A stretch of 64,000 bases of DNA from Haliotis rufescens (lineage: Eukaryota): contig NW_025963868.1 of the NCBI RefSeq assembly GCF_023055435.1, positions 10,602,001 through 10,666,000 on the forward strand. Reading direction: 5' to 3'. The notes under the pieces were generated by a model. It searched no databases and was not told the origin of the DNA. It worked only from the letters and a program-made list of their open reading frames with translations. Made by a program: the position numbers and the translations under genes. Below are positions 1 through 61,400 of the stretch, piece after piece; the stretch's first letter is position 1, and the number at the start of each line of letters is the position of its first letter.

Positions 1-89
1 AACAATTATAGACTAGCTAACACGCAGAAGAACATAAAATTACCTCAATAAAATACCTTATAATGGCAACATAAAATGTCCTGATGAAG

Positions 90-330
90 GAGTGAGTGAG
101 TTTGGTTTCAACGTCGGTTTTAACAGTATTCCAGTTATAGCACGGCGTGTCAGCTTAATGTGGGAGGAAAGCCCGACGTGTTGCAGATCTCAGACGTTTA
201 CCTCTTCGGTGAAACCCACGAGCACGAGCGAACCGGGATTCGAACCCACAATCATGTTTCTGGCGTGCCCAAGGGACGCAACTCTGCCCAGCGAATCGCG
301 GCGCCTTAGACCACAAGGCCACTTGTGCCC
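90..330 (-). mobile_element. SINE family A (tRNA-derived)
   Basis: Matches the family A consensus: B-box GGTTCGAATCC and (CACT)n tail on the minus strand. Confidence 0.85.
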
Positions 331-878
331 AGTCCCCCACCCTCCTTATATGTATCTTTCTAAATATATTTCGGACAACATAATACAAGTCGAAATTTCC
401 TAAATACCCCATAATGGCTATATTAAAGGTCAGGACATCAGTGATGACGTATTACGAGTCTTTTATTATATCTTATAACGGCAAATTTCAGATTAAATAT
501 AAAAACATCTATAATATGTTATAATGGCCAATTTTAGATTAAATAGAAAGATCAACCAAACAACTCGGGTAATATGAATACACAGTCTGCAACCAGACAC
601 GAACAAACATTTTACAGAAGATGGCGGATTCCACGATTATGCCTGGTAAATAAACAGATTACCCTGACCAAATAAACTCTGGCTTATCCAATATGCGTTG
701 ATCAAGGGACAGATATTCGGAGATGGGCGATCAGAACTGCAGGGCCAGCTGTGGTCTTGATATAGATGAAACAGAAGCGATCGTAAAAGCTAATTTTACG
801 AAAGAGAAAACCTCTCTCAGTTCAAAGCCTGAATCATTGTATAACATTGCGAAACATCTTGAATGTGTCCAGATATTG

Positions 879-1105
879 GTGAGTGAGTTGGGTTTAACGC
901 CGCTTTTAACAGTATTCCAGTCATATGACGGCGTGGCAGCATAATGTGGGAGGAAAGCCCCAAGTGATGCAGCCCCACGAACCTAGAAACATAATCGGGG
1001 CGAACCGAGATTCGAACCCACAATCTTAGGTTTCTGGCATGCCCATGGGACGCAACTGTGCACAGCGAATTGCGGCGCCTTAGATGACTGGGCCACCCGT
1101 GCCCC
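879..1105 (-). mobile_element. SINE family A (internally deleted)
   Basis: Family A head and tail; imperfect TSD ccagatatt/ccaaatatt. Confidence 0.85.
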
Positions 1106-1639
1106 CTCCAAATATTAACTTCGCTAAAGTCGCTCGTTAATTAAACAGTAGACAAAACGCATGTAATAAAGACGTTACGTTGAATATGTTCATCAATCAA
1201 AAATAAAATACCCATTTTGGAAGCCATTGCCTGAAGCATAGGAACATAGGCTTGCTTGTTTTATGCAGTACTCAGAGGCATTCCAGCCTGTAAATAATTG
1301 AATCTGGACCAGTCAATCCTGTGATCAATATTGTGAGCTTCGATTCACGCCGTCGAGATATGCGGACACGTTATCAACCAGATCACCGAGTCTGACCTCC
1401 AGATCCATTTGGTCACCCCCTACGACTAGCAGCGGGATGTTGCATATGGAATAAAATATATACAAGACAGCAACAGTGAGTTTCATTCAACATTTCCATA
1501 CAGGACGTCTCTTGAAGAAATTAGTCTTTTGAACAGCAGGTATTATGAATAGACAACCAGTTTCAAAGAGGCAAAGCGACTCTCCATTCTACTGGTGTAC
1601 GGGTCTTGATCTTTAGTTCAGAAAAAAAGGAATATTGAT

Positions 1640-1935
1640 GCGGGAAAGATCCCGTAATTGGTTGATTCGTGTTGCCAGGGAAAAATCCTGTGATTGGTTG
1701 AAACATGTTGCCTGCGAAAGACCCCGATATTTTGTCAGGGACGTATCACGTGTTTGAAACATGTTGCCAGGGAAAGATCCCGTAATATGATGAGTGATTT
1801 TTCCAGGGACGTATCACGTTATTGGTTGAATCATTCTGCCAGGGAAGGGTCACGTTATTGGTTGAATCATATCAGGAAAAGATCCCGTCAGCGATTGAAT
1901 CCGGTCGCCAGAGACAAATCTCGTGATTGGTTGAT
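1640..1935. repeat. ~37-bp degenerate minisatellite, ~8 copies
   Basis: Recurring gttgccagggaaagatcccgtaattggttgaa.cat units. Confidence 0.8.
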
Positions 1936-4327
1936 GGGCTAATGTTGAAATCTTGTCAGTCATTTCATTGGTCGGTCAAAGTTTGCGAAATGTCGTTCTG
2001 ACGTGACCTGTAATATGATTTCCTCAGATCTTTGTTTAGCGGTAGCGGAGATTGTGTGGAGACAAGATGTTTGTTTGTTTGTTTGTTCTTTAACGCGGTG
2101 ATCAGAAATATTCTAGCTATATTTTAAAAAATAATAACTTACGATATTGTGAGTAAACGATCCAAGCCATCAGTGTATAATGACACACGATGACAAATCA
2201 GCGATCATTTGGACGCCTCATACGACCCGGATAAGTGTATCCGGGAGTGTTGTCTCGAAGGACATTTCAACTAAGAGATGCAGGAGTGTAGTGTCCCAAT
2301 ACGATGCTTACTTCAGAGACGTTCTCTGCAACCACCTAATAAAAGGATATTGTGAATTATTACATACCAATACGTTCAAGGCTTGGGGACAGGGCTTCTC
2401 AACATAACTCAATGGATGGTTGCTTGTGACATCATATCAGTGACTAACTCGGTCACAGACGCGATAATTTACAGACCGCCGTCATGAAATTGGAATATTG
2501 CGGGGTTAAACAACAAAAACAGAACGACAGACTGTACAGAACTTTCAGTTTCGTCTAAAGTCTCTTGTACCTTTGAGCACCTCTCCATTGGCTTTATGTA
2601 TTATTGGTTCTCCAGAACAACACGAGGAGATAAAACGTCAGTGCTATCTTAGACAAAACAAGATACATTTTGACCTTCCTCAATCGTTGGACTATATCGC
2701 CTGAATGGGTCAAGACGAACATTGTAGTTGGATTTTGTGCCTGACTGTGGAAATCCAGTGTTGTACAATTTATTTAAAATGGTTTCAATACTTGTTATGA
2801 GCGTTATCTTCTCTCTCATGGGTGGATATTCAAACCTCAGGCAGGTCTTCCTTTACAGGCGGGTGTATTAACTCTGTAGGTGCTAATCACTGGACAAAAT
2901 ATCATCCATTCCAAAAAATCCAAAACTTGGAAATACCACCATTCCAATTGGAAATATGACCATTCCAAAATTTGGCAAGGTCATATTTACAAGCTTGGAA
3001 ATGTTTGGAAATGTTTGGATTTGTTTGGATTTGTTTGGATATGTTTGGATACATAGGTGATTTTATGTCTGCTTCTTACTTTTGTTCACCGATGTGGTTA
3101 AGCTGTTCAGATCGTTTCCAAAGTGGATTTGCTCTTATTTCACCTGCAATATTTTATCCTAATGCTTTAGTTAAATACATACTACTGTTGATAAATGTAT
3201 TTGACGTTGCAACACATCAAGGTTTTACTGCCGCTTCTTCAACTTGAGTGCACTTGAGATTATTATTTACATCGGTAATGCATTCTTGCAAGTGTATCTT
3301 TGGCTTAATGCTTCAAACTAATGCTTTCATAAAATACCCCATTAGATACTTTTCAAATGTTAGGATGTGTTGGATAGGGCAACACATCATGGTTTTACTG
3401 CCGCTTCTTTCAGTTCGTAGGCTTGTATAACGGAACATGGTGGACCTATATGTCTACATATTTGATTTTATGTCACCAAGCTCATTTGTCGACGAAAACA
3501 TTTCATCTGTAATACGTTGCATAAGTGTATCATACTTATGGCCATCATATATTTTGGAAATATTTAGATATCGCAACACATCATGATTTTATTTCAAAGA
3601 TGAAAGATAAAGGTCACTGACGGTAGATTTTTTTATAAAGCATAAATCTATAAAGCTCATGTATTTAATATATATGATTTAATTTGTATATAGCGTAGTA
3701 TAGTGAATTTCTCTTGGTTGTTTAACAAGCTCACATAAAAGATGTAAGCCTCAATAAATTAAGAATTATGTTTCTACTGGTGCTTCTTCTGGTTCTCGGT
3801 TTGTTGTTGCGCTTTGTTCAAATATTTTGTGATATGAACTTAAATGATTTGAATTTTATCACAGCATGTACACCACCAGGAGAGAGGCATCGTGGTTTTA
3901 CTAGTGCTATTTTACAAATCGAATATACCTTTACCAGACATGGCGATGCGATTGAACATCCATATGTAATGGTACCCTGTTATATATGGCTGTTTCTCTC
4001 TCTGTTTCTCAGAAGTAATCCATAAATTGATAGCATTATAACTAAACTGCTGTCGAGATGTTCATTCCAAATCTTACATTTCACCAAGCCATGCAGAAAT
4101 AACAAAAATACAAAACACAGGATGAACGTGAATTTATATACAGGATATCATGTCATAGTTCAAGATATATTTACAATAAATAACACTTGGGCACATCAGT
4201 GGGTAATGATCATACATATATACAATTATATCTACAATAATACACAAATATAGAATGTACAATTAAAATTTCTTTTTAAAGCAAAACTATACAACAACAA
4301 TATAAAAAGAAACAATAAACCAATAAA

Positions 4328-52400: not shown

Positions 52401-55400
52401 ATGAGGAACACGCGGGGTCTGAGTGGGAGTGCCAGAAGATACAGAGAGGTACTACGCTGTTTGTCATGGTTCTTGTACAATACATCAAAGTACTCCGTGC
52501 TGATTGGCGGATATATGTAGTCTATGAATTTCGCGCGGTCTTCAGTTATTGTCAGGTCACAGGCGGCAAGGTCCACTTCCTACAGAGGTACAAATAGTAT
52601 TATTGTTCTTTGTTTGTTTGTAGTCCAGCTATATTATTTTTTTTCTGTAAATAATCGAGTCTGGACAAGACAGTCCAGTACTTGACATCATGAGCATCGA
52701 TCCACGCAATTGGGATACTATGACATGCATCAACCAGGTCAGTGAGCCTGACCACCCATTCCCGTTAGTCGCCTCTTACAACAAGCATAACAAATATTAA
52801 AATTACACGATTACATTTGTATCAACATGTCAAAAGTGATGCTGCCTGAGCATTAACAATGCACCGTCCCTTTTGAGATATGCCTACAGATTGTGTTAAG
52901 CAAAATAGCAGAGAGTGAGTGGGTGTTTTGTAACGCCACATTCCACCTTTATCTTGATGGTTTCTTAATAATCGAATTTTACCAAGTAAACCAGTGAGTA
53001 ACACACCTAACTCCATCAGAGCACAATGACAGGTGATCACGTGTCTTACCATCCAAGTCACGATACATGTTTTGCCTTTTTCAAATAACGACGAGGAGAC
53101 TTGGCCTATTCAAATCTGGTTCTGACTTATTTACGAAATAGCAAGCCCTAAAAGAGGCATATTAAATATTTATTAAATTTACCGTTCTGTTCAGCTGCCC
53201 CACAATTCCATTATAGGTTTCGTTGACAGGAAGTCCCCACGACTTGTCCTGTGGTTCAGTGATGCTGTAACTGGAAGAAGATGAAATGTTTTAAACGGGT
53301 ACGACAATATATGGGCACTACCAAAATACAATCATCCCTTCGATGCAGTGAAGGAACTACACACAAAAACTATTGACAGAGTGTAAGGTAAGTGAAGGTT
53401 ACTCACCTAAAGTTTAGAACGTTGGCGATTGTATCCAAGATATCTATTGCATACCCCTTATAATGTGTTGTTCCATTGTTGATAGACTTCATAATGTAGA
53501 ACGTCGACTGTAGCAGAGTTACAGCAGTGCAGTCAAAAGTGGGTACATATTGTATAAGGTAAACGTGTATTCTTGTAAACAAGATTTTATGTATTAACAT
53601 TCAAACGAATCACAACGTTAACCATTTTTCCATTCAAATAACCAGTTTTAAAACCATTATTATGATCCACAATCATCAAATTGTAATGAATGTCAAAAGA
53701 CGTGACAATCGTTTGTCTCTACGTGACTGTAAACATGAATGCAAAGTTAAGTACAGGATTTGGTCATTAATGAAAGTGTCAGATTGTCTAGAAAAATAGG
53801 ATTTAGCCATATTGTTACCTCGTCAAGAACGGCCACCAATAGATGTCGGTTGTTGTAACTGTAGGCAACATTAGGAAAATAGCAAGACATGGTGGTTCTT
53901 GAAGTACAATCAGCCACTGGTATCAACTCGGTTCTAGTAGATTGATGTCTTAAGGTGAAAACGTTGTGTATCCAACACTAGGAATAGATATTGTGTAAAA
54001 CACATGGTAAGTAATAGCATAGTGAAAGTATACAGAGAACCGCTTTGTCAGTACACTCTTCAAAAAAAAAGAAACGCACAGGTAGATTTTTAGTAAATGT
54101 ATTGCACTTTAATATCATAGGTACAAAAATAGAAAAAAGTTTTGGAGCTCAATAGTCACACGTTGTCGTTGTACAAAGGCATTGAAAACTGTTCATTGTC
54201 ATGTCACATAAGGCCACAAGGTTGTGATGAACTCAGTAACTAGTGTGACCGACCCAGGCAGCAGTCACGGCTGTGCATCACCTCGGCACTGACTGGATAA
54301 GAGTTTGATTTCTTTTCAACGGAATTCTGCGCCATTCTGCTTGTAACGCGTTGTGGGAGTGTCTGCGACCTGTTCTGACGTTGACGTACACGCCGATCGA
54401 GTTCATCACAGAGGTGTTCGATCTGGAGATCTCAACGACCAGGTCAAGACGTTGATGTTAGCATCATGCAGGTAGACCACCATGACACAAGCTGTGTGCG
54501 GTGGAGTGTTGAGTAGTATGGTCAATGGTGATTCCAGCTCACTTCCACTGGTGCCAGATTTACCCCCCTGTACTGATACTACCGAGGTAATTTTTTATGC
54601 AAAAACCACGATGCGATTCAATGATCATCATGAGACTAAACTAAATGGTAATGAAAATAGTCTCTGTTATTTTTACTCATACACATACCATTATTTTGAA
54701 CAAAGAGATATTCAACATTTTTACTCAGGAGACCAACTGTATACTCTTCTTCGAAATTGGAAAGAAACAAATAATTACCATATCTGGTTGGTTTGACATC
54801 ACTAATTAAATGTATACCTTGTGGTAATTCACGCCATTTGATAGCTTTTGTCATTATTTTAGACTTATGTAGACGTCTAAATGAATGTGCAATCCAACGA
54901 TGTATCCAGGAAACAATCTTTTCTTAACGTCCAAACAGTTCTTTGGTTTTGGCATGGAATAATTGACGCGCTTGTTTCCCCTCTTCTTTGATTTTGTTTC
55001 TCCTCTTCACTAATGCTGCTGGTCTTACGAGAATTTGATCGAATATCGTGCTTCATAGCGTTGTATTTGGTGAGTCCTGACAGCACTTAAAAAAACTCCT
55101 CCTCGAATATCTTGCAATGAGCCACTGCTGTTAAAATATGATCCTCAATACTATTTAACTTTGATTCAGCGAGTACATGAATACTTTCTTTTGCAACTTA
55201 CGAGAAATACATTTCAGAGCTATTCCTGCCAGTCCAGATACTCCGGCTGCTACTTCCATGCCCTGTACGATAGGTGCGGCAATTATAGTTGGTAATAAAC
55301 CAACACCGGCTACACCAAGTCCCATGCTAGCCATTACAAGTGCAGTGTCAACTTCATCGAGAGCATTCACAGCTCTGGGATACTTTTTATATTATCCAAG

Positions 55401-58400
55401 TCTAGAATCACACTCCTTCTCTATGTGTTGTTTTATGTCCCTTATTTGGTGTAATCGAAATCCATCAACAGTATCCATCTTCTCAGACGCTTAATCGAGC
55501 TCCGGGTATAAACCCATAATGTATATTATTATATTATATGAGTGTTTAATTGGTCTTTTAGAGTGTTTAATTGGCCTTTTAGATGTATATTATGTGGCAT
55601 TATTATCTTTGGAAGCCAAATAATGCGCCCCCCCCCCCCCCCCCCCATTAACTTGGACCCCCTCAAGGTTTGTTGCGAGCCCTATTCCTGACTGAAAAAA
55701 TCTACAACGTTGACGTTCGTGTTTCTTAAGCCATTTAATTGATAGACCCGGTAGTTTCTGGAAGGTATGTTCTGGAGCTTCCCCCAACAAGAATTCCATA
55801 ATAATTGTAGCACCTTCGGGTATATCCTTCAAGTTATTTAATGTATCATTGAATTCCGTAACCAAATTTAAGCTAACATCTTTTAATGACGGACGACTCA
55901 ATAACATATAGCCTTTGTCATCTGGCAGGGGAGCGACTAACACACTCTTTCATATTGAGGGGATATAAGCCCCGAGTACGATCCCACTATTGATTATCTT
56001 TGTTAAATTATGACCCCTACCCGTCCTCACATATGTTGGGTAATGGCGATATTCAGGAGCCATTCAATATTTGTTTCGAGCATAGCCCATTTATTTTTAT
56101 AATCGCGAAAAAGATTGTAAAAAGTGTTTTTATGCAGTCTACTTACATAGACATTATTTAAATCTCGTAAATTAGGTGCTGGTCCTGTATATATAACTTC
56201 TTTCCACTTATATACATTATCTTGTAAGTGTAAAGCATATAACTTGCCCTCGATACCTGGTTTATCAAATCCTTCTGTGTCTCTAAGATTGGAAAGCACA
56301 ATTGTATTACATGCCTTGGGTTATGCATTCCAGGGCCTGAAAAATCAATCATTATTTATAATATGAAATGTCACACTCAAATATCCTATATGTTTTACAT
56401 CTAATACAGAAATATTGAGATCTGTAATACTACCCCACTTTAACTTCTCATACTGCAATAATGAGAATGATTCTGTTCTACCACTAATGTATTTTTCCAT
56501 CTTTGACTGGAATAGCTCTCAGCAGAGTTGAAGGACTTTCGAGTTGAATATTATCCGTTGTACTGATCTGTTCAAGATGGATGCACAACTCTTTATAGGG
56601 AACTATATCGGGTAATTTAGGCCCAACCACGTATGTGACGATTGGCACTTCTTCAACTAGAAACCCAAGTGTATTTGCTTAGCCTCTGCCAAGCGCAAAA
56701 GAATGTGTCCCACTGAATAAAATCAGCAACCCATTCGACTCATTTTGTTTGAGACTACTTTGAAAAGGCTTAAAAAATCTATTATTGAGCATGCATACGC
56801 TGCAATACCCATCAGATATAGTGTTAAGGGTATTATCTTTATAAAACTTATAATTACCTCTTGCCGCACTTATATTTGCCCATCGTGGGTAATACGTTAT
56901 ATTGCAGAGAGAAACATGAAGTTGGCTAGCCGAGTTGTAGATAGTGTGAAGCAGACTGAATAGACTGACCATTTTGATATTATCGGAGTGTAACATACAA
57001 AACAAAAGAGTCATCCGAAGATGACGTATCCCCCCAACGTGGCATGTTGGTAAACTGTGTGTAAATGTATTTAGAATGGCAAGGAAATCTTTTTCCTTGA
57101 TGCCAAAACCAGAAATATAATGAAGGTTATTAAATATTGGTTCATGTAGCTCACTTTCTGATGATCTCATGACATTGTAATAACTTCGCAGATTCGCATA
57201 TGAATAGCTCTGTAGTAGCCTCATGACACAAAGGCATAAAGAGAATGTACTATGTTATGTAACTCATATCATATATAGTATATGATATCGGTAAATAGTA
57301 CACCTTAGAATTATATGTCAGGGGCTACAAATTAAAAAGATTAAAATCTATAAATAAGAAACTGCACTTCAAGTTAACATGATTGATATGTGCATAATGT
57401 TTGGTGACTCTCTGTCGCATGGTTTAGAAGATATTCTCCAGTCGAGGACATTACCCTAAGTTCATCAATTTTCAATTGAAATTGAAAAAAAAAAATGAAA
57501 AAAAATCTGTTAATAGCAAAGCCCTAAAACATAACCTGCTTGATAGGTGTAAACAGTTTTGAGAAGCTAAATTGTATGGTTAGGGAGATATAGTCCGGAT
57601 AAGAGCACTACCCTCAAATTTCCTAAGTTCATCATATCTCCATGGAAACGACAAAAATATAAAATTCTTATAATCTCTTAATAGCAAAAGGCACTTCTAC
57701 TGAGCCTGATTGATAAGTGTACCAAGTTTTGTGAAGCTAGGTTGTACGGTTTAGTAAATATGGTCCGGACAAACAATGATTACAGACAGACGGACAGACG
57801 GACATACTGATGGCTATTTCCCCCGTCATTATATGTCGGGGGGATAATAAAAATACAAAGATATTACATTAAAACTTTAATATGGGAGGTGTTAATACCG
57901 AGAGTAGTATCGAAGCAACTTACATTACGAACCAGTCGATTTTAGTAAGAGTCTCTGGTTCCAGTTTTTTGTTCATTTACCCAATATCTTTGGAAAATAC
58001 AGGTTCGCGGCAACTGGCACCAAAATTGTGCATGATTGGTTCCACAAACCAACTAAATAAGTCTGTTTTATCATTTCATTTGTAGTCTCAGATTAGACAT
58101 ATACTTAAAGAAATTAGTAACCCATTACCACAGGATCAAGCATGGAATGGATCAAATAATCTGTACAATTGGTGGGCATATGAACGTATTTGTAAGGACA
58201 TTTATGTTTCTACGAGTAAAGATTGGCGTCTGTATGGAGTTAACCATGGTCTAGGTATATCGTACGCTTGTGCAAACTCTGTTAAAGAAGTCAGCGTTAT
58301 TGAAAAGAGGTCAGCTTCTTCCAAGCTTTGCTCTCTCGAGTAACGAGTGCAGAGACGATCGTATGAACTTTAAGGGTGGTGTTGCTTTCACCGTCCAAAA

Positions 58401-61400
58401 AGTTGAGCAAACACAAGATGTCGAAAATGCTTGAAATCAATTTCTTTATGATAAAACAGACATTAATTTTACTAACCCAGGAGTTGTAAGAGTTAATGAA
58501 TCAATAAGATCTTATGTTTCACCATTACCTATACTACTTGTTGAAACAGCTCCCTCTGGCGGCAAACCATTAGAAGAAGGGGAGGTTGATGAATTTGATT
58601 CATGTAGTGATTTGCTGTCAAATTTCCCTGAACCACAACCAAGTCAGATCTCGTGGTGTAGGATATGGCCCCCTAACACCATGATGCTACCGCCACTGAA
58701 ACTGTCGAATTCATGTACACAATGTGGGGCAAAACGCTCATTTCAACGACGCTGGTGAAGAAGAAATCGTGATTCATTGCTAAACCACACTCGTCATATT
58801 TCACGTCAGTTTCTCAAATTCAAAGGCGGAAAGGTGTGGCAGTAACGCTAGCGTTGCTGTCGATGGATGTGTCGCAATACAGGCACGATAACTGGTCATC
58901 TGGGTCGGATTCCAGCTTCGCGAAGCTGGTTCCTGCTCTGGTCTGTTATCCTCCGCGTACAAGGGATGCGTCCTGCAATCTCTGTAGCTGTGGAATTGCG
59001 ATGGCTAGGTGGAACAGTCAACTGTAGAGATCCTGTGCAGCGGTCATCCGGTTCTTGGACGGCCAGCAGTGGAATTGAACTGTGTGTATCAGTCTCAAAG
59101 GGTACAAATGGTACTGTGGTGGACGTTGAAGTTATGTGCAACAGAAGACTGCGCTCCCCTCTTTAGATACGTCCTTTGACCATGTTCTGTTCGGCAGCGC
59201 TGAGTCGAATAATTTCGAACTTGGAATATGTTGACAATTTAATGACAAATTATTGGCTTACGCTTGCCTTTTTATAGCCACTACCACGAGTTACGAATGC
59301 CATAACTTGCAAGTGCATTTTACTTTATTGTTCTCCTCCAAGCCATTTTTGAACAAGTGTGAAAACAATGTCTTTTAAGACATTGCAAATCGACAATGGC
59401 TGTGTTTTGACGCATATCGAATATCAGGCAACCAACATTTTCCAATAACATATATCCAACTTATATACCGGATTTTTTTATTTGTCAGGTTCAATGAACC
59501 ACATACTACCTGTGCGTTTTCTGTTTTTTGAAGAGTGTAACTAAGTATAACGTTTATAAATAATAAATGGAACTGTTATACTGTGTGGTGGGACAGGTTG
59601 CTGAAAAGTAGTACACCCATAACAGCTTGCGTTTTTAAGTGTATTAAGTACAATACTTTCAATGCCTTCAAGTTGCATACCAAGCCATCATCAAGTATCC
59701 AGACTGAAGGGCTAACTCCCATTTGGTGTCAACTTTGGGGCAATATCCTCCTTCATTTGCCACTGTTAAGAGGTGAGCAGCTTAGCTCCAGGGACAAGAG
59801 AGCCTAGAAGATGAATCAAGACCAGAAAGATCTTCACCCGCCACCACTAAGGTGTGAGTGAGTGAGTGAGTTCGGTTTAACGCCGCTTTTAACAGTATTC
59901 CAGTCATATCACGGCGTGTCAGCTTAATGTGGGAGGAAAGCCCGAAGTGATCCAGGTCTCAGACGTTTACAAATTCGGTGAAACCCACGAGCACGGGTAT
60001 GGTGCTGACAAACCTATAAACATAATCGTGGCGAACCGGGATTCGAACAACAATCATAGGTTTCTGGCGTGCCTAAGGGACGCAACTCTGCACAGCAAAT
60101 CGCGGCGCCTTAGATGACTGGACCACGCGTGCCCCCCACCACTAAGGAAAATGTTGATAAAATACATGAAAATATTACAGATGATCGACGACTCATCACG
60201 CGTCACCAAGCAAATACAGTAGGCCTCTCTCGTGAGAAAGTAGAGAACATTCTGAGCAGTTAACCTGAAATCACCAAGGTTTCAAAACGCTAGGTTCCAA
60301 GCCTTCCGACTCATGATCAGAAATGCTCCAAGCGACCCAGGTGATTTTGCTCAGTGATTTGTAAGCATTGGTAAGTCTTGGGTTCACCACTTCCACCCAG
60401 AAACAAAACAACAGTCAAAGCAGTGGCAACATTTTGTGTCTCCTTCAACGAAGAAGGCAAAGTCTGTTTCATCATCTGGCAAGGCGATGGCGTCTTCTTC
60501 TTGGATCCTATGGGAATCCAACTGGGGGAATACCTTGCGAAATGTGAGATCATTAATGGCCAATCTAATCCCTTGAAACAACTGCTAAAGAAGACTAAAA
60601 CTAAAGAATATTAAGGCTAAATGTCGTGGAAAACTCACTAAAGCTGTGTTATTTGTCAGGGCAATGCAACTGCCATGCTTGCTTCATCCACCAGATTTGG
60701 CACCGTCAGATGTCCACCTCTTATCACGTTTGAGCCCCGAACATCATCCCCCGCATCCCCTAACAACCTCCATTACAATATGCTGAATATATAACTTGGA
60801 CAAGGATCGGTAATTGTCATTACGTTTAAAAATGTTAGGAGTCCAAAGTGTAGGATGACGCATTACTATTGCAATAATGTCACAATAGTAAACGGAACCA
60901 GCTTATACTTTTGCAAAAGTCAAGGTTCCTCGAAAGTTACAATAGACAAGTAAATTGGGCATACAACCAAGCTACAATATTCCCAAATGTAATCATTATT
61001 GTTCATCGAGGTACACACCTTATGGTGACGAAGCACAACCACATTTTCCAAGGACATGAAGTGTAGTTCAATGCGATTCGTTTCTTCGGGAAGAAGTAGC
61101 CACTTTGAATGATGTCGGAAATCAGTCATTCCCCTTGTCATAATATCAAAGGAATCCACCTAAAAGACAGAGACATTTCTATTTGTAAGTTTACACGAAT
61201 GGGGTTCATACGTAGTCTTGATCAACAGAATGCAATGTGTTACATGAGTCTGTCTTGAAGAGAAAGGGTAAATACTTACAGTCTTCAATAACTCGGTCAT
61301 ATGTCTTTGACTCATAGAAGCAACCACGTGAATTTCTGGGAAGAGAGCTTCGTGGATTGTCTGTAAGGTATTATTTGCGTCCACGACACTGAGGTCATAC

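Follow-up and report, generated by a model that had tools for sequence, protein, structure and literature searches.

Non-autonomous families of Polintons are catalogued in Repbase. As a class, Polinton/Maverick elements are 13-25 kb long, with TIRs of 100-1500 bp and TSDs of 5-8 bp (10.1101/2023.08.22.554363; PMC4028283), and a protease is reported in 74% of Polintons (PMC4028283). A divergent polymerase class, pPolB2 or 'Beta adintovirus', is described as carrying the catalytic motifs while matching no Pfam polymerase, and its degraded endogenous copies are described as common in animals (PMC8502044). Polintons lacking PolB are reported to be still amplified in butterflies (10.1101/2025.02.07.637071), and the account given for the anole records no non-autonomous Polintons there (PMC3014272).

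The window, that is, the whole 64-kb stretch of Haliotis rufescens DNA that was analysed, contains an insert of 4,027 bp (54512-58538) which starts with AGTAGTATGGTCAATGGTGA, ends with TCACCATTACCTATACTACT and has both tips exact. A sequence-only reading had described it as a terminally intact 'mini-Polinton', a non-autonomous or defective-interfering element with TIRs of only about 20 bp, inserted in a Tc1 transposase. The claimed ends, the TGTTG flanks and the Tc1 target were all re-read as stated, and the Polinton/Maverick origin is supported by colinearity with full-length copies of the same genome. The insert represents the left end of a ~14.7-kb Polinton, in a decayed state, followed by the last 20 bases of the right end. 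In contrast to Polinton/Maverick elements as described, it thus retains no Polinton DNA beyond the left arm and 20 bp at the right tip. It resembles PolB-less and non-autonomous Polintons in that replication genes are lost, both ends are kept and a transposon is nested inside; however, those of butterflies and of Repbase are multi-copy with full TIRs, whereas the window copy is single and one of its TIRs measures 20 bp.

Structure and gene content of the insert

The window copy matches, in colinear order, bases 1-4102 of a 14,728-bp full copy at 75-79% identity; the homology comprises 2.4 kb at 73-77%, a downstream part and both tips. In BLAST searches of the 1.33-Gb genome, many loci matched the leftmost 2.5 kb of the insert, and many its rightmost 0.7 kb (40 scored of 2,162 and of 1,100 candidates, respectively). 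The insert had been taken as virus-like over its whole ~4 kb, but ~845 bp belong to a nested repeat whose best relatives are 94% identical to it, and hold no Polinton DNA, so that only ~3.2 kb of Polinton DNA are left once this repeat is subtracted. A homology search gave 3,226 candidates, and most of the matches listed cover the nested repeat alone; by its look, the repeat may be a Helitron-type non-autonomous element. The features of the locus are collected in Table 1.

Table 1. Features of the insert and its host transposon (positions of the window)
Feature	Position	Strand	Basis and remarks
Host Tc1, part left of the insert	54052..54511	-	34-bp TIR at 54052-54085; 89-90% to three other Tc1 copies
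TGTTG, left copy of possible 5-bp TSD	54507..54511	+	Ambiguous, the Tc1 target sequence being repetitive
Whole left TIR, at least 135 bp	54512..54646	+	134-135 bp alignment to right TIR of full copies
Polinton gene relic, ~200-218 aa, unnamed	54930..55556	-	ORF mapping; frameshift and stops; no Pfam family above cut-off
Polinton gene relic, ~270 aa, unnamed	55535..56350	-	ORF mapping; two frameshifts and a stop; 6 unnamed homologues
Penton (minor capsid protein) gene relic	56351..57000	-	ORF mapping; frameshift and stop; predicted fold of unbroken counterpart
Nested ~0.85-kb high-copy non-coding repeat, unrelated to Polinton	57006..~57850	.	Most listed matches confined to it
Conserved Polinton gene, unnamed, 5' part, broken, cut by the deletion	57851..58517	+	ORF mapping; 399 homologues
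Deletion junction, ~10.6 kb of parent gone	58517..58519	.	Comparison with full copies, pattern searches
Outer 20 bp of right TIR	58519..58538	+	Alignment
TGTTG, right copy of possible TSD	58539..58543	+	Read at right tip
Host Tc1, part right of the insert	58539..59539	-	34-bp TIR at 59506-59539

Genes were mapped by comparing 97 natural ORFs from six full copies with the 64-kb window. Matches were obtained for 36 of the 97, every one from the left arm, and they represent four genes, each with stops or frameshifts; the five to six ORF relics counted previously are therefore reduced to four, the last of which possibly corresponds to two ORFs in some copies. Integrase, polymerase, ATPase and major capsid genes have no counterpart in the window, in agreement with the earlier statement that replication genes are missing. 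A structural gene had also been expected, and one is kept as the penton relic. The unbroken natural counterpart of this third relic is predicted to fold as a single jelly roll (pLDDT 96.7), which best matches the mavirus penton (E 1.8e-07), followed by Sputnik and adenovirus capsid entries; by its modelled fold, the relic is identified as a minor capsid protein (penton) gene. In the Atlas, the penton falls in unnamed clusters, with DUF5901 at 12% of members, and a literature search for DUF5901 gave no match among the 5 entries listed.

Structure prediction of the ORFs was fruitful in part, since it named the penton and left the conserved gene family, modelled on homologue P0022 with a good predicted fold (pLDDT 86), without a fold match in the PDB. 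The second relic (~270 aa) has no family in the Atlas, and the two left-arm genes could be linked neither with GasderminX or Cupiennin nor with another accessory gene that bears a name. Scanning both alignments against Pfam yielded no useful name, and neither PDB sequence searches nor a phage search found anything.

The parent Polinton family

The larger relatives proposed as helpers were found in the same genome, with a natural full length of ~14.7 kb and TIRs of 113-188 bp; 5-bp TSDs are present in 11 of the 14 end pairs read. Full copies encode a retroviral-like integrase (rve, E 2.1e-08, above the Pfam cut-off), a packaging ATPase (Pox_A32, E 9.7e-09) and a capsid-like protein (Capsid_N, E 4e-04 to 2e-03, below the Pfam cut-off). 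One of them, copy I, has a long polymerase with the pPolB motifs A, B and C and ExoII, as judged with motif patterns. The parent polymerase matches no Pfam polymerase and no PDB sequence, and resembles the pPolB2 class in combining three catalytic motifs with no Pfam match, a likeness by motifs. A crude motif pattern search found no adenovirus-like protease in six parent copies, in which respect they may differ from most Polintons. By size, TIRs, 5-bp TSDs, integrase, ATPase, both capsid proteins and pPolB motifs, the parent family is Polinton/Maverick.

Exact matches to a degenerate 24-base pattern of the element end number 1,522 in the genome, against 0 for the control. This exceeds the number of elements because a left-end fragment is carried in another repeat, as found at 20/20 loci fetched from near-identical matches. 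The first 100 ends listed of the 1,522 include 37 facing pairs less than 25 kb apart, with a median of 14,801 bp; 31 of these pairs measure 12-20 kb, three are below 6.5 kb and none falls at 2.8-4.5 kb. The sizes of end pairs grade continuously from 0.5 to 21 kb. Two long pairs, of 18.0 and 17.3 kb, lack a TSD, perhaps through wrong pairing or recombination.

Other parent copies show many internal deletions and insertions. Copy L058 has a different deletion of its own, which leaves 80 bp of the right TIR, and is flanked by a 5-bp TSD. Both ends and a 5-bp TSD are also kept by a 482-bp short form and by a 1,808-bp one with two junctions, the latter of which looks young given its identical 121-bp TIRs; each is single among 40 scored candidates apiece. 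A 5.9-kb copy, L101, was considered as a mini-element and rejected, being an inverted duplication in which the flanks are mirrored too.

Among 34 copies placed in a tree, the window copy sits on the longest tip branch, with the nearest copy, which also has integrase and pPolB DNA, 11% away; the youngest parent copies are 2% apart. The private changes of the window copy in three genes comprise 27 non-silent and 18 silent ones (omega 0.5, p 0.025 vs neutral), which suggests that the length of this branch may in part reflect the history of a lineage under selection and not decay alone, and is therefore no clean date for the insertion.

Target site, terminal repeats and deletion junction

An uninterrupted relative of the host element matches the Pfam family HTH_Tnp_Tc3_2 (Tc1/Tc3 transposase HTH). 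The empty site reads GTTG-TCC-TGTTG, with TCC between GTTG units, in 11/11 uninterrupted Tc1 copies read. The insertion inside Tc1 is confirmed, although it is not the clean interruption previously described, as TCC is absent in comparison with the empty sites; the only other difference is one C-to-T change at a CpG, seen in several Tc1 copies. The caveat raised on TGTTG, namely a 3-bp deletion instead of a true TSD, still stands, the empty-site alignment fitting both a loss of 3 bp with no TSD and a 5-bp TSD accompanied by an 8-bp loss. A true 5-bp TSD is modestly favoured, given the 5-bp TSDs of the family and the deletions that the window Tc1 copy carries of its own (8, 11 and 21-24 bp in the left part, 1-13 bp in the right part). 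The 8-bp unit is missing from 0 of the 100 Tc1 pattern matches listed (of 253).

The left 135 bp of the window copy match the right TIR in 3/3 full-length copies tested, so the short repeat is a deletion stump. TIRs of ~20 bp by design are thus not what is found: the left TIR is whole (at least 135 bp) and the right one is cut to 20 bp, and an alignment of the two ends of the insert pairs 20 of its 21 columns and contains two gaps of one base. The right TIR, which all full copies have, is 85% missing, and such asymmetry is expected of an internal deletion running into it. The deletion ends 20 bases short of the right tip with microhomology of ≤2 bp, and it has taken away the capsid, ATPase, pPolB and integrase genes together with most of the right TIR.

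The deletion junction is spanned by the self match alone among the 40 BLAST candidates scored of 913. Two gap patterns, one with degenerate bases, have one match each genome-wide, at this same single locus, and the upstream motif continues into the gene at all 33 motif-holding loci of the 40 examined. In the 1.33-Gb genome no second copy of the junction was found by these three routes, within which BLAST covers 40 scored candidates and the pattern searches require exact flanks. The left 20-mer of the window copy is unique in the genome at one mismatch, and none of the 37 facing end pairs is of similar size (2.8-4.5 kb). Of the element class proposed by the sequence-only reading, the derivation from a Polinton holds, and a mini-element that is mobile, non-autonomous or defective-interfering and has TIRs of 20 bp is not supported, the junction being single and the left TIR whole; relatives of the insert are full-length or bear other, unrelated deletions, and that reading had itself associated full-length relatives with a post-insertion deletion product.

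The left junction is crossed by contigs of near single-copy depth in X1, X3 and X5, runs that come from three studies, one of which possibly supplied the assembly itself. In run X15, which bears another organism label and comes from another study, a contig of single-copy depth runs across the deletion junction and the right end. Such contigs in several runs indicate that the structure does not stem from faulty assembly and has existed long enough for samples to share it. Other joints in sequencing-run contigs pass over the entire insert and keep TCC in between; they are most likely paralogous Tc1 copies. A contig of X9 begins exactly at 58519, at the right stump, with 20 letters on that side only, which weakly suggests that the junction has two alleles. 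Positions 58523-58533 are uncovered by contigs of X3, X5 and X10, and a hole of this kind proves nothing.

Origin of the insert

It is likely that a full-length Polinton inserted in Tc1 and that ~10.6 kb were lost by deletion after insertion. The ~14.7-kb element would have entered Tc1 via the retroviral-like integrase of the parent; the middle ~10.6 kb would then have been removed in a single deletion by end-joining, with ≤2 bp of microhomology, and the 0.85-kb repeat would have landed inside the remnant, the genes decaying. We infer this order of deletion and insertion, as a full-length allele at the site has not been seen. Against this view, the outer 20 bp are exactly spared, as they would also be if an intact end were under selection, and a TSD requires an 8-bp loss seen in none of the 100 Tc1 copies listed, although several deletions of 3-24 bp occur in the window Tc1 copy.

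The exact tips, together with flanks readable as the 5-bp TSD of the family, would also suit a defective genome made during Polinton replication with both tips kept, integrated once by a helper and never multiplied. The short forms of 482 bp and 1,808 bp, each of them single and possessing both ends and a 5-bp TSD, are in keeping with such an origin, as is the amplification reported for PolB-less Polintons of butterflies (10.1101/2025.02.07.637071). It is nonetheless unlikely, since every short form tested is single-copy, the size continuum is that expected of in-place decay, many internal deletions and insertions occur in other copies, and the window copy has lost most of a right TIR that all full copies possess. 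Capture of linear Polinton DNA, whole or already short, by break repair, with 3 bp of target lost and TGTTG as a repeat of Tc1 itself, would account for the slight difference from the empty site (TCC absent and one CpG C-to-T); it is very improbable in view of the two exact element tips, the prevalence of 5-bp TSDs among family end pairs and the existence of another 8-bp deletion in the window Tc1 copy. Even with such a capture, the insert would still be a lone relic.

Potential helpers are abundant, some of them young, and both tips of the insert are intact, as would be needed if full-length elements moved, in trans, a family of mini-Polintons whose TIRs measure 20 bp; with one copy found, a left TIR of full length, all genes broken and no sibling nearer than 11%, this is the least credible origin, an exceedingly improbable one that the assembly analysed largely refutes. 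Mobilisation in trans is plausible in general, and the window copy gives no sign of it.

The insert, best read as the remnant of a Polinton deleted in place, is likely ordinary genome debris, an old single deleted copy and no new mobile mini-element, and it is predicted to have no present activity. As read, the locus matters little, being one decayed copy out of hundreds. There is a small chance that the Polinton family sheds tip-intact defective genomes (4.0, 1.8 and 0.48 kb) which are integrated by helpers one at a time; if so, 20 terminal bases on one side would suffice for replication and integration. To our knowledge, no experimental data exist on the end sequence needed by a Polinton, and short forms that predate integration would be fossil defective genomes which bound it. 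Polinton replication and decay are better studied in the parent family, which offers hundreds of near-full-length copies differing widely in age.

Gene content of the truncated and full-length copies

The conserved gene that the deletion cuts short, so that only its 5' part remains in the window, has 399 homologues, all of them without a name. A confident structure model was obtained for its family, and a fold search of the PDB returned no match to this model, which may represent an undescribed fold. Several full copies of the parent Polinton family (L091-L096 and L105-L106) carry the penton gene as a tandem duplicate, and the copy in the window has one penton gene only. A crude pattern search for a protease motif found none in six Polinton copies.

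Positions of the truncated gene and of two short forms
Feature	Position	Natural counterpart
Conserved gene, deletion-truncated	window 57851-58517	L091:3807-4784
1,808-bp short form	L102:195-2002	
482-bp form	L087:6192-6673	

Short, mirrored and embedded derivatives

Two other short forms retain both ends and a 5-bp TSD. The longer has two identical 121-bp TIRs and contains two deletion junctions, while the other is hardly more than its two ends; with 40 candidates scored for each, neither form had a second copy among them. Another locus, L101, is a 5.9-kb palindromic structure with two left arms, whose mirroring extends into the flanks; either the sequence was duplicated in inverted orientation or the structure is an artefact of assembly. 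At L134-L153, a Polinton left-end fragment of up to 0.9 kb lies within a different repeat, which measures at least some 4 kb (e.g. L136:1-4100); these loci share 96-99% identity, and all 20 have the same upstream flank. In sequencing run X9, a 120-base contig begins exactly at the right-TIR stump (window 58519), an edge that could mark two alleles at the deletion junction.

Genomic clustering of the parent family

Of the first 100 matches listed to Polinton ends, 91 fall between 39.5 and 45.9 Mb of C1 in the same genome (G000), and among these matches they form a dense cluster of elements of about 15 kb; its far edge is where the listed matches end, and its extent is at least 6.4 Mb. Two-ended copies of the family probably number several hundred.
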